Source: Bispira polyomma (taxonomy: Eukaryota). Taken from it: DNA of 64,000 bases. Below the pieces are notes generated by a model that saw only the letters and a program-made list of their open reading frames with translations, made no database searches and was not told the DNA's origin. This document shows positions 9,081 through 63,721 of the stretch, piece by piece. Position numbers and translations under genes: made by a program. Each line of letters begins with the position of its first letter. Position 1 is the first letter of the stretch. Where the stretch lies: positions 68,944,001 to 69,008,000 of the forward strand of contig OZ287748.1 of NCBI GenBank assembly GCA_965649765.1. The letters are read 5' to 3'.

Positions 9081-9299
9081 TACACGGGCGGTCACAATAG
9101 TGTCCAGGTCACAATATTAGTTGACACACTTTTGAAAGTATAGAACGTAGATTTCTCAAAAAAGAAATATATAGTATTCTGTAATTTAGTTCATATGCCT
9201 AAAGTCGCCTGTATTATCAATTTTAATTTCTGTCAGTAAGTTTATCAAAAATGCAACAGACACTATTATGACCCGGACACTATTGTGAACGCCCGTTTA
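9081..9299. mobile_element. MITE with ~35-bp TIRs
   Basis: ACGGGCGGTCACAATAGTGTCCAGGTCACAATA versus TATTATGACCCGGACACTATTGTGAACGCCCGT; a related element lies at 35988-36203. Confidence 0.8.
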
Positions 9300-9862
9300 G
9301 TACACTCATAAAATATATTGTGAACATTATGTTCACATTTGGTTGATATCCTCATGTTTTCTGCAGCTTTAAAATTATTTACAAAGGGGAGGGAGGCCGT
9401 ACAAGCGGATCAGGTCCTTGGAATCTACTTGGAGGCTTCCTCACATGCTTGCTGGTTTTCCTGTCCATCATTTACCTATGGGTTATGAGTAAACAGTAAA
9501 CATCAATGTGGAAACATATATAGTTTTATACATATAAGTGCACTAATTGCACTTGATAAGTTTATAATAGATTCAATGCAAGATTTACCAATATTCACTA
9601 TACAAAACTACGATATTGTATTTGTAAAGCCAATATGTGAGTATATTTGGTGGGCTGACACCACGGTGGCAGCCCCCTCAGTTCTGGTACCAGGCTACTG
9701 GGGGACAATTAGGCCACCTGGGGTCACGAGGGCACATATAAAAGGCTTTGGCGCCTATACAGCGCCATCATTAAAACTTTAACTTGTCACAATAACAGTG
9801 TTTTTTACAATTGGGCGTTTACTACCCTATTTACGTGTTTTAAGCCATTTTAGTCATTGATC

Positions 9863-10867
9863 ATGCCTTCTAGAAGGGAATATCAGTGTAGTGCGTGCAT
9901 GACAAGACATACACGGCCTGTTGGTAAAAACTGTCGGTTTGTGGAGGGCAGCGTCGCTGATGATGTGTCCACGGTTGGTTCCACCGCTGGTGAGATTTCT
10001 GCTTCAGTTTCTGAAGTAATACTTCAGCAGCTTAACTCATTGAATAGCAAGATGGACAGCATGGACCAATGCGTGAAGGTCACGGAGGCGGCGCTGTGCC
10101 CACCCAGCGCACATCAGGCATGTAGTACTTTACCTACTAAAACTGTTGATATTAATCCTACTGTGGTAATCCCTCGCATTGTAGAGCCAGTAGCAGAGGC
10201 GTTAGCCCCTTCACTAGATTATTTGCGTTCTAATGAGAATTTACAAACACAGGTGGATCAACGGTTACTGCAGCTCCAACAGCTTAATCAGTTAACGGGA
10301 GCAGGTAAATTAAAGTCCCAACGAGGGGGTTCTGATGCCCCCATAAAAAGGTCTGTAGATTGGCCCCAAAATTTCGTTCTTTCTGGAACCAGAAAGGTTA
10401 GGCCTACTTACGATGATTTGACATTAGTTCAGTTTATAGCTGGTTTTGTGAGATGTGTACAGGAACAAAAAACCTCTGAGATTAAGGAAGCTATGCTTGA
10501 GTACCTTGCAAATTTAATGGACGACGCCCACGACTTTTCGTGGGAAGCCGCCAAAGCCTCCCATGCGATATTACTCACCAATATGGAATTAGACCGACTT
10601 AAATGGACGGATGTGGATAAAGTGGATCGCATTCGCCGGGCCCATGCACAGCGTCATGGTTTGAGTAGTGCTGGTGTTGGTTCAAAGACTAATGTTAGTA
10701 GTAAGCAAAGAACTCAGGTTAAAACCCAGGGGGTGTACTGTAGATTTTTCCAGGAAGGTACCTGTAAGTTTAATACCACTCACCGAACTTCTGGTCAGCT
10801 TTTTAAACACTGCTGTGAGACATGTGATGGCTCTCACCAAACCAAATTATGTCAAAAAAGGGGTTAA
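9863..10867 (+). CDS. Gag-like ORF1 of element 1
   Basis: N-terminal CxxC..H..C motif, coiled-coil segment, WPQNF..RPTYDDLT motif shared with elements 2/3, C-terminal Cys/His fingers (CRFFQEGTC..H..C..C..H..C). Confidence 0.85.
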   Translation: MPSRREYQCSACMTRHTRPVGKNCRFVEGSVADDVSTVGSTAGEISASVSEVILQQLNSLNSKMDSMDQCVKVTEAALCPPSAHQACSTLPTKTVDINPTVVIPRIVEPVAEALAPSLDYLRSNENLQTQVDQRLLQLQQLNQLTGAGKLKSQRGGSDAPIKRSVDWPQNFVLSGTRKVRPTYDDLTLVQFIAGFVRCVQEQKTSEIKEAMLEYLANLMDDAHDFSWEAAKASHAILLTNMELDRLKWTDVDKVDRIRRAHAQRHGLSSAGVGSKTNVSSKQRTQVKTQGVYCRFFQEGTCKFNTTHRTSGQLFKHCCETCDGSHQTKLCQKRG

Positions 10868-13229
10868 AAAAACTGCACTGGTCGAACCCAAAGTGATTGG
10901 CAACACCCCTCGAGGAAGTACTACTGTGGGCGAAATTGGGGGAAGTAGATTGGGTAGCGTGTTAAGTCAGGGCAAAAACAAGTTTAATACTAGAAACGGC
11001 TCTGTATTTGACCAAAGAACAGCGAGAGTTATAACCCCTCCGGTCAATTGTTCCCGGCCTCGACTTCAGCCCAAAACGTGTCAACGTGATATTCAACACA
11101 ACTATCCTCGAGGTGTCAAACGTCACTCAGCGAAAAGTTCCACCCCTAGTAATCCCATAATGAAGTGTCAATGTGCTAGCAGAACAAAGGGAAACAGTGC
11201 AGGGTTTCAATTAACACTTTCCAATCAATATGGGATTTTAGACAATGCCTTTGGGGAGGGGGAAAGTGACATTACTGTGAGTGATTGTGTGGCGTCCCCC
11301 TCTGTTGAAGTGGGGGAGTCAACAAAGAGAACAATGAGTGGAAATAAAAAGGTGTTAGCCCCTAACAAGAACCCAACCAAAACAAACAATGATTTAAAGG
11401 ATGATCAGTATGTTCTTGACATGTGTCGCTCACTTGACAAGCGCAAGAGACTTGGTGAGGCTAAAGAGTGTGATACGTTCAAGTTATGGGATGTCCAAAA
11501 CAATGGGAAATTTGGGTTTATCCCCCTCTCGTCCTGGGGTAAAAAAGTACCAGATAATGCACAGAGAACAAATTGTACAAATGTTTTTGCCCTTCACCAG
11601 TCTTTGCGGGAAGACGGCCGTCCCAATTACAGGGGGCTGCGGATCCCTGTCGCCTCTCAATTAAATGCTCCAGTGTGGGCGGCTTATTTGGGGGACTACT
11701 GGGATTGGGAGCTCCCCTTGCTGATTAAGTACGGCTTTCCTCTTGACTGTAAGGCCAGGGGCGACTTTAAGTCGGAACTTAAAAATCATTCCTCTGCTAA
11801 TCAGTACCCCGACCATGTTACACATTATTTAAAGGAAGAGTGTAAATTAGGGGCCATGTATGGTCCCTTTGATGTGCCACCAATCTTAAATTTACATACT
11901 TCCCCTTTCATGACTCGCGACAAGTCTAGCTCCTCCAACCGTCGTGTTATAATTGACCTAAGCTGGCCTGAAGGCCGCTCTGTAAATTCTGCGGTGTGTC
12001 CAAATTCTTATTTGGACAAACAATTCTTGTTAACCTACCCGTCCATAGACACTATAACAGCTCAGGTACTTGCTATGGGTAGAAGTTCACTCATATTTAA
12101 AGCGGACATCAGTCGGGCGTTCCGACACGTCCCTATGGACCCAAGAGAGCTAAATTTACTGGGGTTATATTGGGATGGGTACTACGTAGACGGGTCCCTC
12201 CCCTTTGGCTACAAGCACGGCTCGGCCATATTCCAGAGAATTTCGGACGGCATCAGGTATATCATGAAAGGTGAAGGTCACCATATTATCAACTACATCG
12301 ACGATCTCCTTTGTTGTTCAGTTCCATCTAACATATATACCACATACCAGCGTTTGCAGGGGTTTCTGGCTGAACTGGGTCTCACCCTGAGTGACAAAAA
12401 GTTAGTCCCTCCTGCCACGCGTGTCACTTGTCTTGGTATAGTCATAGATACGGTCGATTTCACTACGTCTATACCTGTGGAAAAATTAACTACTATCCAA
12501 GCCTTGTGTGATAAGTGGGCTGGGAAGAAACATTGTACGAGGAGAGAACTCCAGTGTTTATTGGGTTCCCTCCTCTACATCTCAAAATGTGTTAAATATT
12601 CAAGATTTTTCTTGAATCGCATGTTGCATCTCTTGAGAAGTAATTATAAGGTACAAAATTTCAAAATCTCTACTGAATTCATGAAAGATTTAAATTGGTT
12701 TTGTACCTTTCTGAAAAAATTCAATGGTGTCTCCTTTTTCCACCATAATCCCATTACGGCCACTGTAGAATTGGATGCTTGTCTCACAGGCATGGGGGGG
12801 GGGGGGGGGGGGGGGGGGTTTGGTAATAAAGTCTACGCCTTAACTGTACCTCATGAATTCCAAAACCTTAATATTGCCTCCCTGGAGATGCTGAACATAG
12901 TCGTTGCCCTAAAACTGTGGGGTATCCTTTGGCAAGGCCAGAAAGTCCTCATTAAATGTGACAACCAGGCTGTAGTTAGTGTACTTACCAATGGTCGTAC
13001 CAGGGACAGTATACTGGCTTTGTACTCACGTAATATCTTTATGCTGGCTAGCCATCATGATATTGACTTACAAGTTATACACATATTAGGTGAACACAAC
13101 ACGACTGCAGACTTGCTGTCTAGATGGGAAAATTCCACACAGAACCATGCTAGATTACATACACTTGTAGGTGCAGTGCAGTGGTGTCCTGTCACGGACC
13201 AACACTTAATACTGGATAACACAATATAA
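10668..13229 (+). CDS. Pol (reverse transcriptase + RNase H) of element 1
   Basis: RT motifs RVIIDLS, KADISRAFR, LPFG, YIDD, CLGIVID; RNase H D(AC), E(MLN), (C)D(N), ADLLSR. True start unknown; ORF overlaps the gag end. Confidence 0.95.
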   Translation: MLVLVQRLMLVVSKELRLKPRGCTVDFSRKVPVSLIPLTELLVSFLNTAVRHVMALTKPNYVKKGVKKTALVEPKVIGNTPRGSTTVGEIGGSRLGSVLSQGKNKFNTRNGSVFDQRTARVITPPVNCSRPRLQPKTCQRDIQHNYPRGVKRHSAKSSTPSNPIMKCQCASRTKGNSAGFQLTLSNQYGILDNAFGEGESDITVSDCVASPSVEVGESTKRTMSGNKKVLAPNKNPTKTNNDLKDDQYVLDMCRSLDKRKRLGEAKECDTFKLWDVQNNGKFGFIPLSSWGKKVPDNAQRTNCTNVFALHQSLREDGRPNYRGLRIPVASQLNAPVWAAYLGDYWDWELPLLIKYGFPLDCKARGDFKSELKNHSSANQYPDHVTHYLKEECKLGAMYGPFDVPPILNLHTSPFMTRDKSSSSNRRVIIDLSWPEGRSVNSAVCPNSYLDKQFLLTYPSIDTITAQVLAMGRSSLIFKADISRAFRHVPMDPRELNLLGLYWDGYYVDGSLPFGYKHGSAIFQRISDGIRYIMKGEGHHIINYIDDLLCCSVPSNIYTTYQRLQGFLAELGLTLSDKKLVPPATRVTCLGIVIDTVDFTTSIPVEKLTTIQALCDKWAGKKHCTRRELQCLLGSLLYISKCVKYSRFFLNRMLHLLRSNYKVQNFKISTEFMKDLNWFCTFLKKFNGVSFFHHNPITATVELDACLTGMGGGGGGGGFGNKVYALTVPHEFQNLNIASLEMLNIVVALKLWGILWQGQKVLIKCDNQAVVSVLTNGRTRDSILALYSRNIFMLASHHDIDLQVIHILGEHNTTADLLSRWENSTQNHARLHTLVGAVQWCPVTDQHLILDNTI

Positions 13230-13273
13230 TGTCAGTTTGTGAGTCGCCTTCCCTGTACCAACCTGTATTTCAG

Positions 13274-14261
13274 ATAGAACTCCGTTGCAAAAACAACTGT
13301 ATGACAATGCTACTAAAAAGCTGCACCTGGCCTTCTGCAGGTCCACTGCCAGGTCTTACAGAGCCATGTTTAGAGTGTACTTGGCTTTTATGATCTTCAT
13401 GGAGTGGCCTACTTGTCAGGTGACTGCGTTTCACATACTATGTTTTTTGGAAGTTCTACACTTTAATGTAGTCAAACCGGCTCAGATGGCGAATTATCTG
13501 TCTGCTATCAAGGCCGAATTAATAGTACATAATGTTCCCATTCAGGCCTTCAGTGATCCGCGTATAGCTATTATCAGAAGGCTGTACAACTTACCACTCC
13601 CTTGCAAGTCAAACTTAAAAAAATTATAGATATTCCAACCTTAAAGAATATTGTCTCTGTGTCACACTCAACCTACATGGGTGTAGTTTTCAAAGCAGTA
13701 TACTTGCTTAGTTTCTTTTCTTTTCTTAGACTTTCAAACCTGGTCCCTCATTCGCTGTCACTTTTCTCTCCTCTTAAACATCTAGCCAGGGGGGATGTTA
13801 TGTTTCACCCTGATAAGGCCGTCTTACTTATCAAGTGGTCAAAAATCATGCAGAGCAATAACCAAATTAAATTACTTACAGTTCCCCGGTTACCTGGCTC
13901 ACTTTTGTGCCCTGTGGATTCACTGAAGGCGTTAATGAGACTCACTCCTTTGGGACCTAATTCTCCATTGTTCCAAATTAAGGTTAACAATGCTTGGATT
14001 CCACTCACAGACACCAGAGTGCGACGTCATTTTAAAAGTGTTTTGCTTAAACTTAAACTCCAACATTCTGCCCTTACCCTCCACGCCTTCCGTCGTTCAG
14101 GTGCCACTTTTGCCTTTAACCGTAACGTAAGCATTCAGAATATCCAAAAACATGGGACCTGGACGTCGGACTGTGTTTGGAGATATGTTACTGACACCGC
14201 GGATGCTGGTAATCAGGTAGCTGATTCCTTTAAACTGCACTTACTCCCTCCAACCTTCTAG
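13274..14261 (+). pseudogene. Tyrosine recombinase of element 1 with one frameshift near 13570
   Basis: Catalytic R (FLRLSN), K (IKWSK), HxxR (HAFRRSGAT), H/W and Y (HGTW.S..VWRY). Split across ORFs 13285-13629 and 13602-14261. Confidence 0.92.
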
Positions 14262-14526
14262 CTCCTACTGTGTTGGGGTTTGGCTGCTTCAACTTTAAAA
14301 TTAACTCCTCTCTTATGTAATAATTAATGGTTATGTAAAACAGTTACGTAATTTTAGTTATCATTCATTTCACATATTACCTTTGTCGTAAAACTGAAGT
14401 TAATCCTTAAGCTTAACAGTATTATGTAATTATACCTTCTTAAACGGACTTCGGTCTGCTTTCTATTAAGTATCTCTATGTCAGGTCTAAATGATTATAC
14501 TGTAAATGGCTGTCATCACTTTATTT

Positions 14527-14700
14527 AGCTACAGTACAGTAGCTTCATACTTAAGCTAACTTTAAATACTTTTCTAGTTCAACTTAAACACTTGGGTACG
14601 CCCAGTCTTGCTACAGTACAGTAGCTCCATCTTTAAAATACTTTTGTAGTTGTAAATTAAACACTTGGGTACGCCCAGTTTTGCTACAGTACAGTAGCTA
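14527..14700. repeat. Three copies of GCTACAGTACAGTAGCT with duplicated TTAAACACTTGGGTACGCCCAGT linker in the element 1 3' region
   Basis: Copies at ~14528, ~14610 and ~14683. Confidence 0.9.
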
Positions 14701-15623
14701 CATTAAATGTTAAATTTTATCCAAACATTTTCTTATTCATGTAAGGTCACCTTATCTTCCAAATCTTTCGGGTTCGGGTATTACAACTTAAAGTACTCTA
14801 AGGTGACCTTTAGCTAATTTATTTATTATTCCTAATGATATTAATTTTATACTTACGTGACCTTAAGTCATCCTAAGTATCTTGTTTAACTTTACCAGGT
14901 GACTTTGAGTCACCATGTACATAGTAGATTCTAACATGTAGTCTAATAAATAAATTACCGCATTCTGTGTTTACTTACCTTGTCTTCGTGACCTCGGATC
15001 CTTTAGCCTGCTACCGGGGAACTGAAGCCATGTTTGTGACAATGAGACCGTTAAGTTTTGGTAATTAGTTATATATAGCTAGCAGCTGGCTACTGTTGAG
15101 ATTTTTAAAATTTGCTTTGGAGAGACTGTAATGTGTATCTCATATTTACAGTAACCACAACAATACTATTGTGTAGAGCTCATTACCGTGTACTACTGCA
15201 TCAGGACTGTAATGTATTAAATGATTACAAACGATTTTACGTCGAGCTCAAGAAATGTTTGTGTAAATCTTTATTAAAAGAATAAATTTAGCCTCACCAC
15301 TTGAAATCGTAAAAAACCTGTATAGTTCCATATGTACTTTTCATAACATATATTGTGCCCCATCAACATTAAGTGAAACTATGTTAAATAGTAAATATAT
15401 TATGAATTATATACCCCAGCGGCTAATCCAGGGATCCTATTGGTTAAAATGTAATCATGTTACATGACATAAAACTCGACATAACTCGGGAGTCGGGTGC
15501 CTATATCACTGCAGAGGGCCATATTATGTTGATAGACCTAACTATTTTATATTTTTTTTGTCAACAGAAATTTATTATTGTACGGTCGTGACTATTTTAT
15601 ATTATTTTTCCAACATAAATTTA

Positions 15624-18170: not shown

Positions 18171-18489
18171 ATAACAATCATGTGAATATATTAGTATATA
18201 ATATGGAGGTATTGAGAGTAACATTAAACTCAAAATTAATCTAAAAAACTTACTTATTACTTGTTGAACTTTCAGACTGGTTCACTTGTGACCTGAGGCA
18301 CAAACAGAGGCATGGATGTTTCGGAGACACCTCCCAAGCTGCTGTGGAATCTTATCAGTTCTCTCAATTTGACTCTGACATTTCCACTGAACAGCCAATA
18401 GAGACATCCACAAGTGAGATAACAACTCAACAAATAACAACTACTGTACACTACTGCCCAGTCAACTGATAACATACACACCACCACGG

Positions 18490-18973
18490 TTAATGGTGTT
18501 GGATCTACTGATGGCACGCTAACCTTAGCCCCCATTACAGAACAGCTAACCACAGAACACACCCTAATTGATACACCCCCCACTGTTGAGGGAACACCTA
18601 CTGACCGTCCCATTACAACTGATGCTGTTACTCTAGATCACACAGACAGTGAGTACACAGGAGATTGGACTACTGGAGAAAGTCATACTGATGCTACTGG
18701 AAACACCCCACCACTTCAGGGTCTGACCACTGGTAATAGTGCTGGATCTACTGGTGATCCAATAGTCTTAAACCCCATTACAGAACATGTAACCACAGAA
18801 CACACCCTAATTGATACACTCTCCACTGCTGAGGAAACACTTACTGACAGTCCCCCTACAAGTGATGCTGTCATTCTAGATCACACAGACAGTGAGTACA
18901 CAGGAGACTGGACCACTGGAGAAAGTCATACTGAGGTTACTGGAAACCCCACACCACTTCAGGGTCTGACCAC
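18490..18973 (+). repeat. 243-bp (81-codon) tandem duplication inside the mucin-like exon
   Basis: GGATCTACTG at 18501 and 18744; repeated peptide PITE.TTEHTLIDT...LDHTDSEYTGDWTTGESHT...PLQGLTT. Confidence 0.9.
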
Positions 18974-19306
18974 AAAGACAACAACAAGTCATTCAGAAGC
19001 TCTGGGAGTTCACACAGAACCTACTGTAGTTACTGGCACATTTACAACAGCTCAAGACTTGGGCACAGATAGTGTAGGAACTCACATTGAGGTCACAGGG
19101 ATAGACACCACTTCCGTCCTCAATGGTTTTAGTGATACAGTAACTCCTGCCCTTACAACCCTAGATTCCTTCAGACAGTATACTACATCAGAACCAGACT
19201 GTACAGTGTTGCCCGTAGTACAGCATGCAGTGACCATCCACCAGGACACGGCCACAGTCATTGTCACATGTGAAGCAGGGTAAGACTGGAAACTCATTTT
19301 CTGTTA

Positions 19307-27892: not shown

Positions 27893-28104
27893 TACACAGC
27901 ACGACCCTAAAGGGGTATGCTTATTCAGTTCCCTTAGCAAATATATACCTTTACCTTAACCCCTAGGGGTCCATTCGAATACTGGTCAATGGCCTCTCTT
28001 TCGATTAACCAATGGGAGACATTTGAACCCCAAATTTTACCTCTCACATGGTCACCCTACCATATTGAATTTCGTTTTACGAGAGACAACATTAGAAATA
28101 TTTT
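27893..28104 (+). repeat. A1 split direct repeat of element 2
   Basis: Near-identical to 33501-33712; contains a CCAAT motif at ~28009. Confidence 0.95.
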
Positions 28105-28218: not shown

Positions 28219-29531
28219 ATGGGACGAGCTAAGAAAACACCGACGAAAGCAGCACCCAAGTCGAAACGACAGAAGAAGTCTACTGTGAAGGGTACAAAGG
28301 GTAATGTAGCTTATAGCACTGACATGAATGAAAGTATAATAGGAGACCTACGGGTTCCGTCCGAGCAAGCTCTCTGCTCTCATCAAAATTCACCTCAAGC
28401 GGGATGTTCCACCTTCCCGATGGCGGGTTCGGTAGATTTACAACACCCAATGCCACAAGCGATGCAATCCGCTACTTCGGTCAATCCTACCAGTGATAAC
28501 GTAGCAATATTGACAATGTTGAATCGAATGGAGCAATCTAACGCTGCCATAGCCCGTCGGTTGGACCAGATAGAAGCTAGGGGGTTACACCTGTACAGAC
28601 AACTGCCGTGTCCACTACAGCGCTTCAACCGGCTTACGTACCTTCACCAGTGGTACAGCCTACCAGCGGTTATGGAAATATAACCGCTTCGACTGCTTCA
28701 GTCGTGCAGCCTGCGTCCGTATCCAGCACAGCGCTTCCACCAGTTTATGTTCAGCCTACCAGCGGTTATGGACATTTGGTCGGGCCCACTACTACAGCTT
28801 CAACCTCAGCTGAATACACACGTGACGGAATTGTTCCTAGGACGGACGTTTTGAGGTCGATGCCCGAGGTGCAAGCCTTAGTGAATCAGCGGCTGGCTGA
28901 GTATGAAGTCAGGGCACAAGCTATCTTTAACCAAGGTAAGGTTAATTCGCGACAGAAGTCGGGACGTTATAACAATACCGACACAGCGGCCACAGATCCG
29001 CGCATGAAATGGGCTAACGAAGGTTGGAGTGGGGGGTCTTCACATAAGCGTCCAACGTTTGATGAGCTTTCCCTTCCACATTGGGCTGCAGGGCAGTTGT
29101 GTAATGCTTTACTGATAAGTGACAACCAGTTGTTACGTGATATGATCCAGCAAGTAGTACTCTCGCTGAAGGATGCTTCGTCGCTCCCCTGGGAGGTCGT
29201 CCGCACGGTGTGGGCGACAAGCATGCAGGAGGTCGAGGAAGGGCGGCTGACCTGGGATAACACTACTCAGTGGTCGCTCAACCGAATTAGCGCGTCCCAG
29301 ACAGTGATGGCTAATTCATCTCACAGCACAGGTTCGGCTGGTGCATATACGGGGAGATCCACGATTTGCAAGTTGTTTAATTCAGGGAAATGTTCACAGA
29401 AGAATGATCATGGAAATTACAAGCATGCCTGCTGGCATTGTGCTACCGTTTTGAATAAAGATTCGCCTCATCCTGAGTTTAAGTGCTACAAGGCCAATGC
29501 CACAAAACAGTTGGAAAATAAGCATAGTTAG
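28219..29531 (+). CDS. Gag-like ORF1 of element 2 (single frameshift in the G-run at ~28580)
   Basis: Basic N-terminus, coiled coil, RPTFDELSLPHWAAGQL, C-terminal CKLFNSGKC..H..C..C..H..C. Colinear with element 3 gag, which is open across the G-run position. Confidence 0.85.
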
Positions 29532-32306
29532 GACCTTGACCGACTACCAGTGAAAGGAACATTAGCAGTGAGTTGTAGGGACAGAACTGTAGAAACTAAC
29601 GTATCTAAGTCAATAAATTTAAAAGATAATGGCATTGTAAGCTATAATGATGAAGACATTTTGCCTAACTATTTGGAAATTATTCATAATGATAAACAAT
29701 GCATGCATAATGTGATTGATATCAATGATACTGGCATTACTACACAGTTTGAGGGTAACCAAATGGAACATAATGAGCAAAAAAAGATTATAGATGGAAA
29801 TCGTACACATGTACACAGACCTTATGGTCATTCTGGGGATACAACCAATAAAAATAAAAAATTGGCAAGTATAACAGGTGAAGACAAGTTCCATTTGGGT
29901 ACCACAAATACTGTAATATATGTTTCTAATTTTCAATGTCAACAGGACAGGGAAAGTAGTGGGCACAATGTGTTAGATTCCACACAAGCATATGTGGAGA
30001 TTTCGAAAACAAATTGGGAATTTTGCACTGATATCGGGGGACCATTGTTCCCCGTGGTTTTCGTGAACTCTGTTCACTCAGAAATTAATGGTTTTTATAC
30101 CTGGAGGGATGGGGGTCACACAAAAGGGAGTGCATTGGTAAAATGTCTTGGCACTCCAATAGGTCCTATTTATATTTTAGGAAAATTCTATACACAGGTA
30201 ACCATCATGGAAAGTCATGAGGACATTATGGATGTTCATAAGGTATACATTCCTACGGATACTGATCACATGGTGGCTAGAAATACCTCCTATCATTATA
30301 AGAAAGACATTGAATGTCAACAACGGCATAATGTTAATTATACTACATATATAACTAACTTAATCGATAAGTTGATTGAAGCTGATGATATAGTCACACA
30401 GCCATTTGATCATTGTACAAACTTGGACATGCATGAAGGGAAGACAAAACTTCATCGCAAGGACAAGTCACTGGATGGAGGACAAGCAAATATCACAGTG
30501 TATGAATTTAAGGATCATGGTTCAGAGATAGATAGTCAGAATAAGGCAATTAAGGATTTTAACTTTCCAGATAAGGATAAGGGTTTCATTGCTTTAAGTC
30601 ATACAGAATTTGAATTCTGTGGCCCAGATAGGGCTCCAATTAAAATTACTACAGTGCAACAAATGGTGGATATAGCTCACACAATCAAGGATTCTGGTTG
30701 TGCCAATTATAAGGGCGCCAGAATACCAATAGCTTCTGGATTACAAATCCAGGCTTGGGAGAAGGTTTTGCTTGATTATCCGGATAAGTTGTTACTCCAA
30801 TATTTAACTTTTGGGTTTCCACTTTCTCTTGAGCGTTCTGAAAATCTAACAGTTAAGGAAGTTTCTAATCATAGTTCTGCCCTGCAACATGCAGAGGCAG
30901 TTAGTCAATATATCAGTAAGGAACAAGTCCATGGTGCCATGTTAGGTCCGGTTAAGAAAGTAGATAGCGAGTTGTTTCACTGTTCCCCCTTACTCACTCG
31001 TCCTAAAGACGGAAATAAACACAGAGTGATCCTTAACCTCTCTTATCCGGAAGGCAGTTCGGTTAACAGTAATGTAGATAAACAACGTTTCGATGGAGTC
31101 GAATTCGCTTTAAAGTTCCCGACCATAGATGACATTGTAGCAAAAATCAGGGATACCGATAATCCTAAGATATTCAAATTGGATATTTCGAGGGCATTTA
31201 GGAATTTAAGAATAGATCCGGTCGATGCCATGAAGCTAGGTATCTGTTTTAATGAATATAAGTACATTGATCCGGCTATGGCGTTCGGATGGATACACGG
31301 ATCCGGATCTTTTCAGAGATGCTCTGACGTCATAGCTTACACCATGCGCAAACGTAAACATACTATATTTTGCTACATTGATGACTACATCGGAATATCA
31401 CCTGCTCATGAGGCAGAAGGCGCTTTTAACGATCTTTATGAGTTAGTAACGTCCTTGGGTCTTCCCCTAAATCCGGACAAGATCTCACGTCCTAGTAGAA
31501 ATATAACTTGCCTGGGGATAGATATTGACATAGAGGAGGGCCTTATTAGTATTTCCAAGGAAAAATTGGAACAAACTTACGAATGTTGCCAACAAGCTTT
31601 TAATAAGAAGTGGATGTCTAGAAGAAATTTCCAATCTGTTTTAGGCAGGCTTCTATATGTTCATAAGTGTGTTAAGCCGGCTAGGATTTTTATAAATCGA
31701 TTATTAATGGCTTTCAGGAAGAATGCTCATGCAAAGCGATTTCATATTACTAATGATATAAAAGCAGATTTGCTTTGGTTTATACGTTTTCTTCCCTTGT
31801 ATAATGGCATAACTTATATCGATCCAATAATTCCTCCTCACCAGAATGAAGTATTCATTGATGCATGTTTAACTGGTTTAGGGGGGCTTTATACTGACCA
31901 AGTTTTTGCTTCTCCATTTTATAACATCTATAATCAGCAGCTGTCCATAGTGCATATTGAAATGCTTAATATATTAATTGCCTTGCGTGTGTGGGGGATA
32001 CAGTGGAAACATAAGAGAATAATTATTAACTGTGACAACATGGCTGTGGTACTGGTAGTTAGGTCTGATAAGACTAAGGACCAATTTTTAGCTTTATGTT
32101 TAAGGAATATGTGGCTGCTTACTGCAGCTTATGACATTACTTTGGTTATTCAGCATGTTAGGGGGAAGGACAATACTATAGCAGACATTTTATCAAGGTT
32201 ATACTCAGATCACCCACCAACTGGTCACCAGGTCGACATGTTAGAAACAGGATATAAATGGCATAGTATTCCTATTCAATACTTTAACTTGAATTTAAAT
32301 GTTTAA
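29532..32306 (+). CDS. Pol (long N-terminal extension + RT + RNase H) of element 2, in frame with gag after a single TAG
   Basis: KLDISRAFR, MAFG, YIDD, DAC, EMLN, CDN and ADILSR motifs; uninterrupted ORF. Confidence 0.95.
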   Translation, partial: DLDRLPVKGTLAVSCRDRTVETNVSKSINLKDNGIVSYNDEDILPNYLEIIHNDKQCMHNVIDINDTGITTQFEGNQMEHNEQKKIIDGNRTHVHRPYGHSGDTTNKNKKLASITGEDKFHLGTTNTVIYVSNFQCQQDRESSGHNVLDSTQAYVEISKTNWEFCTDIGGPLFPVVFVNSVHSEINGFYTWRDGGHTKGSALVKCLGTPIGPIYILGKFYTQVTIMESHEDIMDVHKVYIPTDTDHMVARNTSYHYKKDIECQQRHNVNYTTYITNLIDKLIEADDIVTQPFDHCTNLDMHEGKTKLHRKDKSLDGGQANITVYEFKDHGSEIDSQNKAIKDFNFPDKDKGFIALSHTEFEFCGPDRAPIKITTVQQMVDIAHTIKDSGCANYKGARIPIASGLQIQAWEKVLLDYPDKLLLQYLTFGFPLSLERSENLTVKEVSNHSSALQHAEAVSQYISKEQVHGAMLGPVKKVDSELFHCSPLLTRPKDGNKHRVILNLSYPEGSSVNSNVDKQRFDGVEFALKFPTIDDIVAKIRDTDNPKIFKLDISRAFRNLRIDPVDAMKLGICFNEYKYIDPAMAFGWIHGSGSFQRCSDVIAYTMRKRKHTIFCYIDDYIGISPAHEAEGAFNDLYELVTSLGLPLNPDKISRPSRNITCLGIDIDIEEGLISISKEKLEQTYECCQQAFNKKWMSRRNFQSVLGRLLYVHKCVKPARIFINRLLMAFRKNAHAKRFHITNDIKADLLWFIRFLPLYNGITYIDPIIPPHQNEVFIDACLTGLGGLYTDQVFASPFYNIYNQQLSIVHIEMLNILIALRVWGIQWKHKRIIINCDNMAVVLVVRSDKTKDQFLALCLRNMWLLTAAYDITLVIQHVRGKDNTIADILSRLYSDHPPTGHQVDMLETGYKWHSIPIQYFNLNLNV

Positions 32307-32312
32307 TTGTAG

Positions 32313-33289
32313 GAACCAACACCGTGACTCAACACCTTATGAATTCTGCATGGAAACGGGTCTCTTCAGCATTACGTCCAAAGACTACTGCTACATACAA
32401 CCAACAGTTTAGAACTTTCATTGCTTTTCTTATATTTGTTGGCATAGAGGACATTTCAACTAATTCTGTTATAGCATTTTTGGAGTACCTGGCGCAAAAC
32501 GGCTCTTCCCCTAATGTTTTAACCAACCATTTATCAGCTCTAAAGTTCACAGCTAACAAACTATATTGGAACCAAAATATTTTCGAAAATCCTTCAGTTT
32601 CCATGTTTATTAGGAGTTTGTCACATTCTTCTACTTTTAGACCTCAACCTAGGGGTATTTTTGATATTACACATTTACAACAGATATCTAAAGTATGTGA
32701 CATTCTGGGGGATCCCCCATTATATAGGGCAATATTTCTGGTGGCATACTTTGGATTCCTTAGAATCTCAAACATTGCTCCACATTCCAGAAATAAATTT
32801 GACCCAACGCGTCATTTCCTTAGAAAGGATGTGGTGTTTGGCCATCCTGGAGCCCATTTAATACTTAAATGGGCTAAGAACTTACAAAATAGATCAGAAC
32901 ATCATGTAATTCAATTACCCCAACTGCAGAATATACATTTGTGCCCAGTCAGGGCACTTCATAAATTGTTAGATTCAAGGGCTTTGCCTGTGGAGTGTCC
33001 ACTTTTTGTTACTGCAAGTTTTCCTCATGTTCCCATTGTGGAGACTCATGTCAGATATTCTTTAACTTCGGTTTTACAACATATAGGTATACCACACAAA
33101 GGTCATAGTTTCCACACATTTAGAAGGTCAGGAGCTACCTATGCTTTTAACAATAACGTTTCTCTCCAAAACATTATGTCTCACGGGTTATGGAGATCTT
33201 CAGCAGTCTGGGTTTATCTTCAGAAAACTCCTCAGGCTGCTGCAACTATTCCCCTTGCGTTTGCTTCCTCTATCCCTTCTTCCCTTTAG
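32313..33289 (+). CDS. Tyrosine recombinase of element 2, intact
   Basis: FLRISN, LKWAK, HTFRRSGAT, HGLWRSSAVWVY; preceded by the acceptor-like TTGTAG. Confidence 0.95.
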
Positions 33290-33296
33290 TTTGGCT

Positions 33297-33712
33297 TGGG
33301 ATATTTTAAAATTCTCTCTTTAAATTTTAAAAACTTGAAATTTTTTAACCTACCCTGTATATACCTTACTAATGTGTATATAAAATAAACCTCAAACTAC
33401 TATCTATTAATTTAATTTATTTCACCTTTAATTACTACAAGGTCACCTAATCTGCTTCTTAACTCTATATCTTTACCTCACTTTGCGAACAGGAGAACTG
33501 TACACAGCACGACCCTAAAGGGGTATGCTTATTCAGTTCCCTTAGCAAATATATACCTTTACCTTAACCCCTAGGGGTCCATTCGAATACTGGTCAATGG
33601 CCTCTCTTTCGATTAACCAATGGGAGACATTTGAACCCCAAATTTTACCTCTCACATGGTCACCCTACCATATTGAATTTCGTTTTACAAGAGACAACAT
33701 TAGAAATATTTT
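33297..33712 (+). repeat. Internal B1|A2 junction of element 2
   Basis: B1 33297-33500 abuts A2 33501-33712; AATAAA inside B. Confidence 0.95.
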
Positions 33713-34374: not shown

Positions 34375-34578
34375 TGGGATATTTTAAAATTCTCTCTTTA
34401 AATTTTAAAAACTTGAAATTTTTTAAGCTACCCTGTATATACCTTACTAATGTGTATATAAAATAAACCTCAAACTACTATCTATTAATTTAATTTATTT
34501 CACCTTTAATTACTACAAGGTCACCTAATCTGCTTCTTAACTCTATATCTTTACCTCACTTTGCGAACAGGAGAACTG
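34375..34578 (+). repeat. B2 terminal repeat of element 2
   Basis: Near-identical to 33297-33500. Confidence 0.95.
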
Positions 34579-35470
34579 AACACAAATATATCACATTATA
34601 TCGTCACAAAGTTCAGGAGACACACAAATGGAACTTTAAAAATGAGTTGTCACTAATGTCTACTTTTTTACACGTGTCGGTATCTAAATGTCAAACCTTC
34701 ACAATAACAATCTGGTCAAAACACTGACCATTACCTTTATAGTTGTAATGATCATCAAAAATCATTTGAAGCAAGTTTCAGTCCAAACTTAATGCTGATG
34801 TTTTTGTACATTTTATGTAATATGTTAGTTTATTGGTTTCAGTTTTAATCAACACTGTCATGCACAATTGTTCCATTTATGCACTGGTATGTATTAGATT
34901 GTGAAGGAATTTTTTTGGTTTAATGTGACATAAGGAATTATTGGAGAAAATAAAAAAATGAAAGGTAGGGATCTTATACAGCCCATAAACGGCGCATTTC
35001 CATCACATAAATACTTAACAATTAACATTTACTTATTGGTCCATTCACAATAATAGTAAAATGTCATTTGTGTGACAATATTTATGGAAACTGCTCAGTT
35101 GAAATTTCTCTTAAACTCACATAATCCTAAAGTCAGTAAAGTCTTTCAAATGTAAGAATCTTATAATACTCCATTTACTATTATTATGTAAAATATAAAT
35201 CTATAACAAGTATATGTAGTTACATCCTTAAAGTAATCCCTCAAAGCTGTATTTTATGGGAGGAAAATAGATATTAATTAATTTGTTTCCACCAAAACAA
35301 AAACCGACAAAAATCAAATCTTAAAGTTTGACTTAAATTTTAGCACCTTTGTAAACCTGCAGTGTGTTATTATAATTACTAGAAGTGGGGTGTTTCATTG
35401 ATCTTTTAACACAACAAAAGCCAGAGAGGGTCATCTTTTAGGACTTGCTTTTCTATGCCCTTTAAATTAA

Positions 35471-35832
35471 GCTGTATATAAGGCCCTGTGGTTTCAACAG
35501 CAAACCACATTCAACTCCCAGGAGACTGACTGGACAAAGATTTTCTTCTATCAACAGGTAAATGACAATATTTTATTCATCATCTGACGTATTTATTAAA
35601 AAAAATTAAGCTAAAGTTAATCAATTTGGAATATAGCTAGATGACTATATATTAAACGAATATAACTAAGAATTTTATAACCTTCATATATGTGCTATCT
35701 ATTGATATGGGATATGTTGTATTTTTGGGTTATCTTTAGATATTAGTATTTATAATACCTGATTAATTAAGTTTTACTGTTAATATTATAATTTGGTTTT
35801 TAGATAGGTTATTTTAATAGTAAGGGACAATG
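35471..35832 (+). promoter_or_regulatory. TATA box and non-coding first exons of the secreted-protein gene (exon 1 to 35557; 12-nt micro-exon 35821-35832)
   Basis: GTATATAAGG at ~35475; CAG|GTAAAT donor; TAATAG|TAAGGGACAATG|GTAAGT; conserved in copy 2. Confidence 0.6.
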
Positions 35833-35987
35833 GTAAGTATTTTAGTGTGTTTCATTCTTTTTGATCCTATAGATTGTCCATATTCCAAAACTTACTTTAT
35901 TTAGTAATATATAGAATGCTAACAGAAATATAGTATAGAATATACATCATTCATTGTTTTCTTAACTTGGCAGGCATTATATAATGA

Positions 35988-36203
35988 TACACAGGCGTTC
36001 ATGATACCGGTTGGGTCACAATGCCGTCTGTTGCCTTTTAAAGACTTTACCGATGGAAAATATTACTACAAACACATGCTACTTCATGTCTATGAATTAA
36101 ATCACAGAATACTTTATTTCATTTTAAATAAATCTACGTTTTAAACATTCAAATGTACATCGACCGTTATTGTGACCCGACCGGTATTATGACAGCCTGT
36201 GTG
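35988..36203. mobile_element. MITE related to 9081-9299
   Basis: TIRs CACAGGCGTTCATGATACCGGTTGGGTCACAAT / ATTGTGACCCGACCGGTATTATGACAGCCTGTG; left TIR deleted in copy 2. Confidence 0.75.
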
Positions 36204-36318
36204 AGTCTAGATACTGTACTTTCACTATATGAATTGGCTTGATCTATAAAGAATAACATTAATTGTTTACAAATAATATAAGAAGATAAAACTTTGCCTT
36301 TGTAGCTAAGAATACATC

Positions 36319-57220: not shown

Positions 57221-57266
<46 letters not shown>

Positions 57267-58578: not shown

Positions 58579-61500
58579 ACTGCATAGCATGACCCAACAG
58601 GGGTCTGCTACTTCAGTTCTACCACAGAAAATTGAAAAGACTACCTTAACCCCTAGGGATTGATTTTATCACTACAAGTTGCTCATTCAACCGTGAATAA
58701 CATACTCTAGCCAATCAGAAGCTTTCCCTCTTAAAAGTGGCCACGTTTTCTGTAAAGACCTTCCATTTTGGAATCAGATTCAGCAGCATTAACACTGACG
58801 TTTTACAGCTTATGAAGGCTCTGCTGAATCTACGTTTTAGTATTTTGGTTTTTTACCTTTTAGTTTGTTTTTAAATATGTGTTACTTCTTTTACATGTTA
58901 TTGTATTCATTTATGTTATTATGGGGAGAACGGCAGAACGTCAGTGCAAACACCCTAAGAAAACTCTGGCAACAGAAGGAAGAAAACCAGCAAGAAAGAA
59001 TACAGTAAAAAAGGGAAGAGTCGGTAAGAACACTCGCATAGATGATAGTATTATCACGGACCCCAGTGGTCTGTTTGACCAGGTCGAATCTATTCACTCG
59101 TCTCCACCTACCCGTTTACCACAGTCGAGTCAGGCTGAATCATCCTGCCGAGACTCTGAAATGTTGTCAATATTAAGACGTTTAGAAGAATCAAACGCAT
59201 TATTAACACAGAGGTTAGATCGTGTAGAGGCCAGGGACTCCAGCATCCAGACAGGGTCTCCGTGCCTAAACCCTCCTCGTCCCTGTTCACAGGCCGCATC
59301 GGCAAGTAACACCATTGCTCAACCGAGTCTGGCAGCAGCCACCTCACTAGCGCGTTCAGACTACTCAACGGACGCCATTGTACCAAAGGTAGATGTCTTA
59401 AAAGCCCTGCCGGATGTCCAGGCTATGGTCAACGAAAGGCTGGTAGAGTATTACCTCCAGGCTTAGGCTGTGTTTACACAAGGTAAGGCTGCTCTTGGAC
59501 AGAAGTTGGGAAGATTTAACATGACAGACATACCTACTAGCAACCCTAAAGTAAGATGGGCAAACAAGGGCTGGACGGGCAGCTCTGCACGCAAACGATT
59601 ACCGTATGACGGCCTATCCCTCCCACAGTGGGCATCTGGCCAGTTGGCCAATGCACTACAGGTCACGGACCCGACTGTTTCCAGAGAAATCATCCAACAG
59701 GTGGTTTTGTCATTGTAGGACGCTGCCACACTACCATGGGAAGTCGTTCGAACGGCTTGGGCGTTAAACATGACAGAAGTGGAAGAGGGTAGACTGTCCT
59801 GGGGTGACACGACACAGTGGGCCCTTAATCGTCTTAGTGCTTCACAGCTGGCTATGGTGAATTCGAAAGCCAACCACTGTTCGTCTGCTCATAACGGAGC
59901 AACAGCTAAAGTTATTTATAAATTATATAATTCTGGAAAATGTGTACACAAAGCTGATCACAACCAATATAAGCACGTATACTGGCACTGCGCCACAGTA
60001 CTTCACAAAGACGTTTACCACCCGGAATTCAAGTGTTATAAGTCTCAGCTAAGCAAACAGAATCAGGATAACTTTCTAACCAATAGGACATTGACCAACT
60101 GCCAGTTCAAGGTATATTTTGTCAGAACAGTAGAAATAAAGTAAAATGTAAAAATTTTAAGAATCAGAGTAATACAGATGTAATTACACCGAGTTTGACT
60201 GGTAGTGCTTTAAATTTATTTAAGAAGACTAAAAATGTAAAAGTATTCTGTCAAGAAAGTATGAGGAAAATTAAAGATAGTAATTCTAAAAATCAAAGTC
60301 ACACAGATGTGAATATGTTAAATCTGGGTAATACTGATTTGAAGTCAATAAAAAACTTTGCAGATGTAAGGTTAGCAGAAACCAGGAATTCGGACATATG
60401 TAAACCCCCCTTGTCTACTTGTTATGACAAGCAGTATAATAGTCATGAACTTCAAAAGGATAACACTCAGCAATGTATTGGGGAAATCCAAAGTACACTG
60501 GCCTCGAGTACCAGTGGTGTTTTATACTCTCACAAACAAAGCAAGTTTTTTGGAAAATATTCAATGTTTGGAATGTATGGACTATAGTGATAATGAGAAC
60601 ACAAGAATCACTCTAAATTATGAGAATGTTAATTCTTTTGAAGGCAATTACATTGCTGGATGTTTACAAACGGGCAAGAAAATTGACTATTATGAAAAAG
60701 CACAGAATGTAATTCAGAACAATGTTATGTATGGTACCCCAGATGGGCCTATGGTGGAGGTCACTATTTCGACTACTAATTGGTTGTACTATATCCCAAA
60801 TTTAACACGGGAATCGCCTGTGGTATTTGTGCAGTGTAAGTTAACACACTATTCTGGTTTTTATACATTGTGGGATGGGGAATTTGGGCAAACATTGTAT
60901 AAATGTGGGCACCCACCAGCAGGTGCAATGTTGGTGACCAACACAGTCACTACTTTTATACCTTTGGCAAGTCTGAGAGACAATGCTCTCAACACGTACA
61001 TGATTGAACCTATTACTGCTATAAGCAAATTGGGAGCTAAACATGCATGGCAGGATTTCCAAAAAGATATATGTTACAAAAAGAGATGTGATGTTGACTA
61101 TACAAAGTATATGACTAACATAATTGATGAAATGTTATTAGACATTGATGTAAATAAAGATGTTCAGTCAGTAATGACAGACCAATAGAGGTCACAGCAG
61201 TTAAACCCTGCCACAAAGGTAAGACTGCGTCGCTCGATTTCTTCTTCAAAACTTTGTTAGATGATACCATTTGTGCTACCATAATAGATAGGGATATAAA
61301 TTTTCCTAATAAAACCAAAGGCTTTTTGGCAACTTCAGACACTAAATTTGAGTTTATAGGACCTGATAGAGCCCACACACATTACATCTATTGAACAAAT
61401 GACTAAAGTAGCAGATATCATTAGGGACACGGGATGTCCCAACTATAAAGGGGCTAGAATTCCCCTCACATCAGGCTTAAACATTAAGGCATGGGAAGAA

Positions 61501-63721
61501 GCACTCTATGATTACCCTGATCAATTGTTGCTTCAATACATCAAATTTGGATTCCCATTATCTCTAACGAATAATGAATAAAAACAGCCATAGCGTGTTC
61601 TGTTACATCGACGACTACGTCGGTATCTCCCCAGAAACAGAGGCCGACCAAGCCTTTAGTCAGTTATATGAATTGGTTACAAAACTCGGTTTTCCACTCA
61701 ATCCAGAAAAAATTTCTAAACCAAGCTCTAGATTAACCTGTCTTGGTATAGATATCGATATTCAAGAGGGCACGATAAGCATTACACAAGAAAAAATCCA
61801 GGAAACCCTCATGTTATGTCGTGAAGTAGTTGATAAGGCTTGGATTTCCAGGACAAAATTTCAATCAGTTTTGGGCAAATTGCTTCATATACAAAAATGC
61901 GTTAAGCCAGCACGTATATTTATAAACAGACTGTTGATGGCATTTCAAAATAACAGCCAGTCCAAAAGATTTAAAATTTTAGAACAAATTAAAGCCGACT
62001 TAACCTGGTTTGTAAATTTTTTGCCACGTTATAATGATATCACTTTTATTAACCCCATTGTGAGTAAGCACGAAGACAAAGTATTCATTGATGCTTGTTT
62101 AACCGGCTTGGGGGCCATCCATGCAGAGGAAGTGTACGCCACTCCATTATACAACATCTATGGGAGGGAGCTCTCCATAGTACATATAGAAATGTTAAAT
62201 ATTTTACTTGCCTTGAGGGTCTGGAGTGAGCAGTGGACTCATAAACGCATAACTATGCATTGTGACAACATGGCCGTTGTCCTGGTAGTTAGGTCAAACA
62301 AGACAAAAGACGAATTTCTGGCCTTATGCCTTCGAAATATTTGGCTGATTTCAGCTACATATGATATTACAATAGAAATACAGCATGTAAGGGGCAAAGA
62401 AAACACTATTGCTGACTTGCTTTCTAGATTATTCTCTGATCAGCCTCCTCACAGGGGGCAAGTGGACATATTAAAACATTCTTGCAGGTGCCATACTATC
62501 CCTATTCAGTATTTTAACCTGGATTTAAATATCTGATTTCAGGGTCAAACCACATCACACAGAGATTTACAGAGTCAGCATGGCAGAGGATCAACTGGGC
62601 CTTACGACCAAAGACCACCCAGACTTACAACAATCAATTTAAAACATTTATCGCATTTATTGTCTATGCTGGCGTAACAGACATTACTACACCTTCACTC
62701 ATAGCATTTTTGGAATATTTAATACAGACAGGAACTTCCCCAGACATGGTGAATAACTACCTTTCTGCCATCAAATATATGGCTAAGAAGCTGTATTGGG
62801 ACATAAAAATTTTGACAACAACACGGTCTCCATGTTTACTAGGAGCCTCACACATACATCACCATTTAGGCCCTCACCTAAGGGAATTTTTCACATTGAA
62901 CACCTTTCATTAATTTCCAAGGCATGCGACATCCTTAGTGATCCACCTTTGTATAGGGCAATATTTATGTCGGCCTTTTCGGTTTCCTCAGAATTTTTAA
63001 TATAGTCCCACATTCCGATTCAAAGTTTGATTCTACACGTCACTTTCTCAGGAAAGATACAATATTTGGCAATCCAGGGGCACATTTGATACTCAAATGG
63101 GCTAAAAACCTCCAAATTAGATCACAGGTCCACATCATACAGATACCACTATTTGGAGACTGCAACCTTATGTCCAGTTACAGCTTTGCAAGCATTACTA
63201 ACATCCAGTCCACTTTCTACACACTCACCCTTGTTTGTCAGTGCAACATTTACACACCATCCAATTGTGGAAACACATGTGCGTTCTGCACTTGCTTCAG
63301 TACTTACACATGTGGGAATTTCCACAAAATCACATAGCTTCCACACATTTAGGAGGTCAGGTGCTACATATGCCTTTAATAATAACGTCTCACTCCAGAA
63401 CATAATGGCACATGGCCTTTCGAGGTCATCTGCTGTTTGGTCATATCTTCACCAGAATTCTCAAGCTACCTCTGCTGTCCCACTCAACTTTGCCTCCTCC
63501 ATACCTAAACTTTCTTGGTTTGGCTTGGGTGTTTTAAAAATTGCTCTGTATTTTAAACTATAATGATATTTTACCCCTACCTGTAGATATACTGAACTAA
63601 CATGTACAGATCTAAATAAATTCCTCAAACTATGGTTTTACTGTCTTCAATATAAAACCACCAAAAACTGCCATTTGACCTTCAATACTGACCTTCCATT
63701 TTCACTCAGTAGAACAGACTG
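58579..63721 (+). mobile_element. Tyrosine-recombinase retrotransposon 3 (relative of element 2), degenerate; A-ORFs-B only
   Basis: Absent from the paralogous site at 42401-42410. gag ATG at 58921 with stops at 59464 and 59716. pol frameshifted and missing the RT core between GFPLSL (~61570) and CYIDD. YR 62543-~63510 frameshifted. Confidence 0.93.
62543..63510 (+). pseudogene. Tyrosine recombinase of element 3
   Basis: GSNHITQRFTESAWQRINWALRPKT aligns with element 2 GTNTVTQHLMNSAWKRVSSALRPKT; LKWAK, HTFRRSGAT, AVWSY motifs; several frameshifts. Confidence 0.9.

Follow-up and report, generated by a model that had tools for sequence, protein, structure and literature searches.

The Ngaro-like retrotransposons, elements of the order DIRS that carry a tyrosine recombinase (YR), have the gene order gag, RT/RNase H, YR and the repeat arrangement A1-ORFs-B1-A2-B2, with neither methyltransferase nor protease (PMC4157794, PMC9210276, PMC3783388, PMC8547959). 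The absence of the methyltransferase separates Ngaro from PAT-like and DIRS-like elements (PMC4157794). These papers present the elements with three separate or overlapping frames and no intron. Expression of YR by −1 ribosomal frameshifting was proposed by Poulter and Butler in 2015, as quoted in PMC13003380. In Cafeteria Ngaros, the insertion site changes where ORF1 has been lost (PMC8547959). Among retroviruses, the SD′ RNA of MLV is spliced from inside gag and gives a Gag-integrase fusion, and this spliced RNA can undergo reverse transcription and integration (PMC10496198).

The window analysed here, a stretch of 64,000 nucleotides of Bispira polyomma DNA, holds three Ngaro elements in which, unlike those in the papers cited, a conserved predicted intron joins gag to YR. 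Judged from the sequences, YR in Ngaro elements of the window type is probably made fused to the N-terminal half of Gag, via a spliced RNA; we put the probability at about 0.86. A literature search found no paper describing a gag-YR splice in Ngaro elements.

Layout of the three window elements

The gag, RT/RNase H and YR ORFs follow in that order on one strand, the forward strand, and the three elements are Ngaro-type retrotransposons with split direct repeats. The order A1...B1-A2-B2, with the internal pair behind YR, is present in element 2: A1 at 27893..28104 (99.5% identical to A2), B1 at 33297..33506, A2 at 33501..33712, and B2 at 34375..34584, which is the 3′ end of the element. The internal repeats were not found for elements 1 and 3. 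Within the range fetched, 39 of 83 copies have both repeat pairs and 33 have neither internal repeat. Two pol frames, which end about 35 residues past RNase H, gave no methyltransferase Pfam match, and the element 2 pol gave no protease family match.

Element 1 (9645..15028) has a gag of 334 residues (9863..10867), is about 146 nt shorter than its sister copies at the gag/pol junction, and has its pol stop 44 nt upstream of the acceptor with no −1 overlap with YR. Its predicted intron (10305..13273, 2969 nt) has the donor GCAG/GTAAAT, where the slash marks the exon border, and the acceptor TATTTCAG; the YR exon (13274..14261) carries a frameshift near 13560–13630 in the window copy. In element 2, gag (28219..29531, with a one-base frameshift near 28580) ends in a TAG stop, and the pol frame for RT/RNase H follows in frame (29532..32306, 924 codons), its stop ending 6 nt before the acceptor G. 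The predicted intron (28936..32312, 3377 nt; donor CAAG/GTAAGG, acceptor AATTGTAG) spans the 3′ half of gag and the whole of pol. The YR exon at 32313..33289, with 325 codons after the join, encodes SAM-like and catalytic domains, with the catalytic residues R, K, HxxR, H/W and Y present. Element 3 (58581..63715) is decayed, with about 90% identity to copy L042 and about 500 nt of pol gone near 61572; its predicted intron (59483..62542, 3060 nt) has the donor CAAG/GTAAGG and the acceptor GATTTCAG.

The first-pass annotation had placed six splice motifs here, and all are present: donor GTs at 10305, 28936 and 59483, and acceptor AGs ending at 13273, 32312 and 62542. As it also claimed, all three introns run from GT to AG and all three joins are in phase 1 into the YR frame. 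No window copy can encode the full fusion as it stands, because of the YR frameshift in element 1, the gag frameshift in element 2, and a stop directly before the donor (59464–59466) plus other breaks in element 3. The motif MAGGTAAR occurs 24 times on both strands of the window, against 14.0 ± 3.9 expected, and exactly once per gag gene on the coding strand, at the homologous glycine. The motif by itself is not rare; the weight rests on conservation.

Conservation of the donor and the acceptor

Of the 77 copies in which the column could be mapped (5 of 82 could not), 76 have the donor G/GTA at a single gag glycine, as do all 33 families (grouped at 80% YR identity); as the families are related, these counts are not independent events. 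It is kept in all groups at 70, 60 and 50% YR identity (13/13, 5/5 and 4/4). All 33 families encode this glycine by GGT, a codon used for 167 of 486 (34%) of the other gag glycines and for 13/31, 8/33 and 12/29 at three other conserved gag glycine columns. The residue after it varies (K, T, N), while the bases GTA are constant. The major class of 5′ splice sites has the consensus MAG/GTRAG. The gag site resembles it, with G at −1, G at +1, T at +2 and A at +3 in 33 of 33 families, A at +4 in 31 and G at +5 in 28.

The donor falls 135–259 codons into gag, within a low-confidence linker between two folded parts in the predicted Gag structure. For element 1 Gag, the predictions give an N-terminal Cys/His motif, a coiled-coil helix (residues 47–78), helices at 118–145, a helical domain (160–267) and a C-terminal Cys/His finger. 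The coiled coil has a heptad pattern as well as a predicted helix. A Gag fold search gave no match at E ≤ 0.001.

At the other end, 74 of 82 copies and 32 of 34 families have an in-phase YAG acceptor, at a distance of 57 or 54 nt from the downstream YR anchor codon, and it was seen, read by eye, in 20 of 20 further short loci. The YAG is constant across 10 different residue pairs. Positions −6, −5, −2 and −1 are invariant, and TTNYAG is present in all of the first 21 families, in keeping with the T-rich tract and YAG that close major-class introns. The AG is lost in two single-copy families (L107, L111) and the exon G in one copy (L055). Branch sites lie 18–40 nt before the AG. An A at −26 in a TTAAY/TTGAY setting occurs in 17 of 21 families, and in element 2 the candidate is TTAAC at 32284..32288; the same bases encode pol residues, so this candidate is inseparable from coding constraint. 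The TAG stop of gag was also considered as a second acceptor, for pol, and was rejected for its wrong phase and the lack of a T-rich tract.

Conservation of donor, acceptor and phase in other family members had been set beforehand as the test of the annotated splice, and it was borne out, internal controls included. Elements of foreign origin, with 32–44% YR identity, keep both sites. Among foreign metagenome loci, the acceptor was present in 3 of 3 with a YR start and an in-phase donor in 2 of 2 with gag, where the L071 donor was assigned by eye to a position 8 codons upstream of the mapped column. Of 53 foreign proteins, 31 have the residue pair expected from an acceptor at the matching offset, and no other offset gives more than 15. 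No Gag-YR fusion protein was found in protein databases, where the matches are all single-frame products; spliced genes could thus hardly show there. A search of viral_contigs gave no relative, and an atlas look-up returned only clusters without names.

The claim that YR has no conserved ATG also stands: an upstream in-frame ATG occurs in 5 of 32 families, and the first Met lies anywhere from codon 2 to codon 229 past the acceptor. YR could instead come from its own internal promoter, or from a restart at an ATG overlapping the pol stop, with the splice-like motifs reflecting coding constraint. Such an overlapping ATG exists in some families, and many foreign predicted proteins begin with M-I-S-G/D here, where the first M may represent an alternative start codon. 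However, 27 of 32 families have no upstream in-frame ATG, synonymous sites do not change at the donor but do so at other glycine columns, and at the acceptor the residues vary while the bases do not. We regard a separate start of this kind as extremely unlikely.

A real splice might also serve chiefly to limit full-length RNA, or YR might start downstream on the spliced RNA. The fusion protein is predicted from DNA, and in 6 of 32 families the YR exon has a Met by codon 15. On the other hand, the phase is kept in every family and in the foreign elements. In 16 of 32 families the first Met comes no earlier than codon 37 and as late as codon 229, which places it within the SAM-like domain or past it, and initiation there would truncate the enzyme. 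We consider a main role other than making Gag(N)-YR highly improbable.

The standing proposal of a programmed −1 frameshift from pol, giving a Gag-Pol-YR or Pol-YR polyprotein, could also accompany splicing in some families. A short −1 pol/YR overlap occurs in 23 of 32 families (50 of 74 copies), but 9 families have none. In most families the pol stop is fixed 6 nt before the acceptor, whereas in the element 1 clade it lies 31–82 nt before it, in any of the three frames and mostly behind a stop of the YR frame. An XXXYYYZ heptamer is present in 19 of 74 copies, from 7 of 32 families. Window elements 2 and 3 count among these, a feature that the first-pass annotation does not mention; in element 2 it is TTTAAAT (32294..32300), in the short overlap and with no stable hairpin behind it. 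The other 25 families have no heptamer, the overlap shrinks to as little as 4 nt, and no stable structure followed the heptamer in 5 of 5 cases tested (z +1.6 to −1.6). By contrast, the gag/pol junction of the element 1 clade has AAAAAAC and a strong hairpin. Pol and YR share one frame in L034, L075 and L095, although not in their sisters. No conserved combination of overlap, heptamer and structure was found between pol and YR, and frameshifting leaves unexplained both the donor and the intron-less copy described below. As the main route to YR it is very unlikely; as a side route it is possible, given the heptamer in 7 of 32 families.

A genomic copy lacking the intron

One copy, L096 (G000:C1, join 95309325/95309326), is missing precisely the GT-AG intron, 3,383 nt long, that its 97–98% identical sisters contain. 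Compared with sister L098, it is 97% identical as far as the donor and 98% identical from the acceptor on, the join is in frame, and the element ends are exact. Both breakpoints of L096 coincide with the predicted sites, and the two sides share only AG. The rough chance that an in-frame deletion would match this join is 6e-5, and 9 long-frame copies were fetched. L096 comes from another family than all three window elements, and its gag is interrupted by a stop at codon 97. A chance deletion or an assembly error, which a separate start for YR would imply, finds a parallel in the internal deletions of other copies (L059, L076, L097), but the breaks at both predicted sites argue against it. Most likely, L096 is a retrotransposed spliced RNA.

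L096 is the single joined copy found: out of 1,082 overlapping YR search rows, it is the one among the 9 long-frame copies fetched, and 20 further candidates gave none. One search showed only L096 itself among the best 40 and another only L096 itself among the best 150, and three more showed none among 150 each by frame length; broken joined copies would be missed. The other long frames are pol-YR joins or rearrangements (L034, L075, L076, L095, L097) or other extensions (L049, L077, L078). L096 has a single A and a single B repeat, which was rejected as a mark of early polyadenylation since 33 of the 83 copies also show neither internal repeat. A single-sequence fold of its frame was uninformative (mean pLDDT 35).

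Three public runs behave as DNA, with even cover. Among the 24 of 64 pieces listed, their contigs do not bridge the L096 join, which is uninformative either way because rare variants are lost from contigs of this kind and the runs may come from different animals. The joint 28935/32313 is absent among the 15 of 41 joints listed in the DNA-like runs.

Conservation, the foreign elements and the intron-less copy together strongly support the gag-to-YR splice that was first noticed in the window. The conserved sites and a copy lacking exactly the piece between them make splicing, rather than the printed proposal of ribosome slippage, the likely route to YR.

Expression scheme and comparison with known systems

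In the scheme that we propose, the host spliceosome would remove a single intron of 2.8–3.8 kb, comprising the rest of gag and all of pol. The unspliced RNA would serve as genome and as message for Gag and Gag-Pol, with Pol arising from stop readthrough or a −1 frameshift, depending on the clade. The spliced RNA would be the message for Gag(N)-YR, and would only rarely be copied back into the genome. Translation of this fusion is inferred. With no protease, the fusion is predicted to stay uncut, and the Gag coiled coil and helix pair could anchor the recombinase on Gag particles or on target chromatin; by way of its coiled coil, the fusion may assemble together with Gag. The splice offers a mechanism for packaging and for an ORF1-linked target preference. 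These would be retrotransposons that keep their RT gene inside an intron, and that must balance spliced and unspliced RNA as retroviruses do.

The splice bears on the expression, in elements of the DIRS order, of a recombinase that lacks a start codon. Being conserved, it allows a precise and cheap test, with one junction and one peptide. The annotation of Ngaro YR would change by gaining a Gag-derived N-terminus, which indicates the form of the enzyme to express. More tentatively, and with the odds slightly against it, Ngaros generally, across animals and perhaps beyond, may follow a two-message plan in which the integration enzyme is made only as spliced Gag(N)-YR, with the Gag portion serving to package the recombinase in the absence of a protease and to direct the choice of target. 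If so, Gag-steered targeting would explain why ORF1 loss accompanies a changed insertion site in the Cafeteria Ngaros.

The first-pass annotation had likened the splice to that of env. Errantivirus env is likewise made from a spliced subgenomic mRNA. In retroviruses such as MLV (PMC10496198), env, the third gene, lies behind pol and is expressed from a subgenomic spliced RNA that bypasses pol, as here. The likeness is loose, since env splices from a donor in the leader and begins at its own start or at a borrowed one that is very short, whereas here about 130–260 Gag codons are kept and the product is an integration enzyme. Neither a 5′ leader donor nor a conserved YR ATG was found in these elements, which work alike but are of a different type. 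The spliced short GAG RNA of plant Ty1/Copia (PMC5580714) also depends on a conserved intron, removed by the host spliceosome, that sets a protein ratio; in those elements the spliced message stops early and yields only Gag, while here the splice would make an enzyme fusion and remove RT. The SD′ RNA of MLV is a closer analogue than env. In the SD′ RNA (SDARE) and its product P50, a gag donor and an acceptor near the 3′ end of pol give an in-frame fusion of Gag(N) to an integration enzyme, as in the present elements (PMC10496198). P50, according to the same account, contains only the last 116 integrase residues and is accessory, integrase itself coming from Gag-Pol. In the Ngaro elements, unlike MLV P50, the whole recombinase lies behind the acceptor, without another conserved route.

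Window elements and sampled copies

The window, which spans G000:C1:68944001-69008000, contains three retrotransposons, each with + strand frames for gag, pol (RT/RNase H) and a tyrosine recombinase (YR). The repeats of element 2 are arranged A1...B1-A2-B2, and a domain search of its frames gives no methyltransferase match. Such split repeats and the absence of methyltransferase are the structural marks of Ngaro in the accessible part of PMC4157794, and element 2 shows both. All six splice-like motifs claimed in the first-pass annotation are present in the window sequence, and its phase-1 joins hold: the introns, each GT..AG and each entering the YR frame, measure 2969 nt in element 1 (10305-13273), 3377 nt in element 2 (28936-32312) and 3060 nt in element 3 (59483-62542). 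Because every window copy carries frame breaks, the splice test was moved to the family level.

Five YR searches of the Bispira polyomma genome each scored the best 118-150 of 9,770-13,770 candidates (about 10,000-14,000). From these, 80 copies were hand-picked for diversity or unusually long open frames, and about 9 kb was fetched around each; together with the window elements the set counts 83 copies, which fall into 34 families at 80% YR identity; between the most distant clades identity drops to about 30%. Donor and acceptor positions were mapped by Gag and YR profiles, independent of splice motifs. The thousands of first-look YR candidates and the many near-identical copies in this genome, e.g. 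in the L064, L041 and L113 families, point to recent activity of these elements. The internal A2 and B pair are both unseen within about 1.8 kb of YR in 33 of 83 copies (L034, L043, L046, L050, L082, L085, L096 and most of the clade of element 1); some of these may have longer tails, while others look like A-ORFs-B forms.

Elsewhere the window holds a stretch of about 6.7 kb duplicated locally (35475-42142 and 51515-58316, 16 kb apart, 88-98% identical), and ORF fragments (45342-46569) that we take to resemble LINE endonuclease, with a 57-nt tandem array (47753-48438) 3' of them. A Thr-rich 281-codon open frame (18438-19283), composed of a 243-nt tandem repeat and lacking ATG, is possibly a mucin-like host exon, and an inverted repeat with 55-nt arms (78%) about 350 nt upstream of element 1 (9081-9299) is possibly a small non-autonomous DNA element.

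Donor in gag and acceptor at the YR start

With L096, a copy without the predicted intron, set aside, the gag column of the donor was located in 77 of 82 copies. G|GTA stands there in 76 of the 77, the sole exception being L055, and in 33/33 families, or 13/13, 5/5 and 4/4 once families are pooled at 70, 60 and 50% identity. The donor glycine codon is GGT in 33/33 family representatives, against 167/486 for the other gag glycines and 13/31, 8/33 and 12/29 at three other conserved glycine columns, a sequence comparison that controls for relatedness among families. Position +3 is A in 33/33 families while the residue varies among K, T and N. The bare donor motif is frequent in the window (24 matches vs 14 expected); what counts is the fixed place, not the bare motif.

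At the other end, YAG lies 57 (or 54) nt upstream of the YR anchor codon in 74/82 copies and 32/34 families, its G opening a YR codon. The residue pair across it takes 10 different values. Of the eight exceptions, L059, L076 and L097 are deletions or rearrangements, L068, L077 and L086 have duplications or a frameshift that displace the anchor with YAG still there, and L107 and L111, with AG changed to AA, are the two failing families. Across the first 21 families -6 T, -5 T, -2 A and -1 G are invariant, and the runner-up YAG position reaches 13/21; the acceptor was also seen, judged by eye, in 20/20 further short loci. The earlier claim that YR has no conserved ATG is borne out, since an in-frame ATG upstream of the acceptor occurs in only 5/32 families and the first Met downstream falls anywhere from codon 2 to 229.

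Four foreign loci on metagenome contigs, with 32-44% YR identity to element 2, have the acceptor in 3/3 containing the YR start and the donor in 2/2 containing gag, with exon lengths of 3n+1 (412 and 397 nt); the donor of L071 was set by eye, 8 codons upstream of the mapped column. Among the 53 database proteins of sufficient length, 31 have the acceptor-forced residue pair at the same offset (other offsets at most 15), just after an F/L/I/C-rich run typical of a translated T-rich tract.

A joined copy and the pol/YR junction

L096 (G000:C1:95302846-95312084, in the Bispira polyomma genome), reached through a 426-codon open frame in the YR search, is 97% identical to its intron-bearing sister L098 up to the donor (920 nt) and 98% identical from the acceptor on (970 nt), and lacks the 3,383-nt GT..AG piece of L098. 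In all sister loci checked (22 fetches, some overlapping), exon 1 is followed by GTAAG or exon 2 is preceded by TTTCAG. The join keeps the frame of the gag ATG (592 nt), with a single stop at codon 97, and the ends are exact, from the first base of repeat A to the last base of repeat B. An in-frame deletion would strike both sites with a chance of about 6e-5, by a rough count with 9 long-frame copies fetched, and the cut has only AG common to both sides. The simplest reading is that L096 would be a reverse-transcribed, inserted spliced RNA. It is the single joined copy in 1,082 search rows, which overlap and in which only intact frames are detectable, and its family differs from those of the window elements. 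Public contigs, which drop rare variants, do not bridge the join among the pieces listed, a result that weighs neither way.

YR could instead be reached by programmed -1 frameshifting from pol, which the review of Poulter and Butler 2015, as quoted in PMC13003380, considers probable, describing Ngaro YR as slightly overlapping pol in -1. A short -1 overlap does occur in 23/32 families and a slippery heptamer in 7/32, including window elements 2 and 3; yet the overlap can be as short as 4 nt, no structure lies behind the heptamer in 5/5 tested, and in the element-1 clade pol stops 31-82 nt upstream of the acceptor in all three frames. Pol and YR share one frame through small indels in single copies (L034, 1253 codons; L075, 517; L095, 816), and an internal deletion has joined pol to YR in database protein P0121. 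Fungal Ngaro YR is in frame with pol or shifted, in elements without protease, according to the portion of PMC3783388 available.

Unlike the pol/YR junction, that of gag and pol has clear recoding signals in both clades. The element-1 clade ends gag with AAAAAAC and an almost perfectly paired hairpin of 8-11 bp (z -1.8 to -4.0; L051, L060, L064, L103, L108), a candidate -1 frameshift site for pol; window element 1 is without about 146 nt at this place, near 10875. Gag genes of the element-2 clade stop at TAG with G as the next base (window 29529-29531; likewise L031, L041, L047, L083, L089, L102, L113), and pol runs on in frame for 900-1000 codons. This TAG is a candidate readthrough site, and no stable structure occurs in the 70 nt past it. 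L071, L074 and L095 have in-frame TGA in place of TAG.

Expression of YR and known systems

The DNA evidence comprises the sites, their phase and conservation, the absence of a conserved start and one joined copy. The first-pass observation is confirmed, and its splice interpretation is supported by the conserved sites and phase, the foreign loci and L096. We put the probability that splicing takes place at these sites at about 0.93; it is highly probable too, if slightly less so, that YR is made chiefly in this way, as a Gag(N) fusion. The unspliced RNA would be both the genome and the mRNA for Gag and Gag-Pol, and the spliced RNA, presumably a poor transposition template, would encode a Gag(N)-YR some 470-580 residues long.

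In the Gag structure model, built on a 29-row alignment (mean pLDDT 72), helix 125-145 is followed by a low-confidence linker that contains the donor codon (residue 148) and leads to a helical domain. The portion upstream of this codon is predicted to hold a heptad-spaced helix of 32 residues and a conserved pair of helices, and in some clades only it has a Cys/His motif. Gag(N)-YR is predicted to co-assemble with Gag or to steer target choice. In Cafeteria Ngaros, ORF1 loss coincides with a changed insertion site (PMC8547959, accessible part), and a Gag-YR fusion, if true, would offer a direct link between the two.

The family is known, but this expression route was not found in the literature searched. 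No report of Ngaro/DIRS YR splicing was found in full-text literature, including the accessible parts of PMC9341512, PMC7192593, PMC4495291, PMC13003380, PMC6681497, PMC9210276, PMC4157794, PMC12477816 (with the DIRS rows of supplement 1), PMC8226300, PMC8547959 and PMC3783388; an earlier mention may stand in Goodwin and Poulter 2004 or Poulter and Butler 2015, both subscription papers, in Repbase entries or in bioRxiv supplements. Splicing in plant Copia elements yields Gag alone, as described in the available part of PMC5580714. The closest described system is the SD' RNA of MLV (PMC10496198, in the part accessible), whose donor also lies in gag and which joins Gag(N) to the C-terminal 116 residues of integrase; this RNA gets reverse transcribed and integrated.
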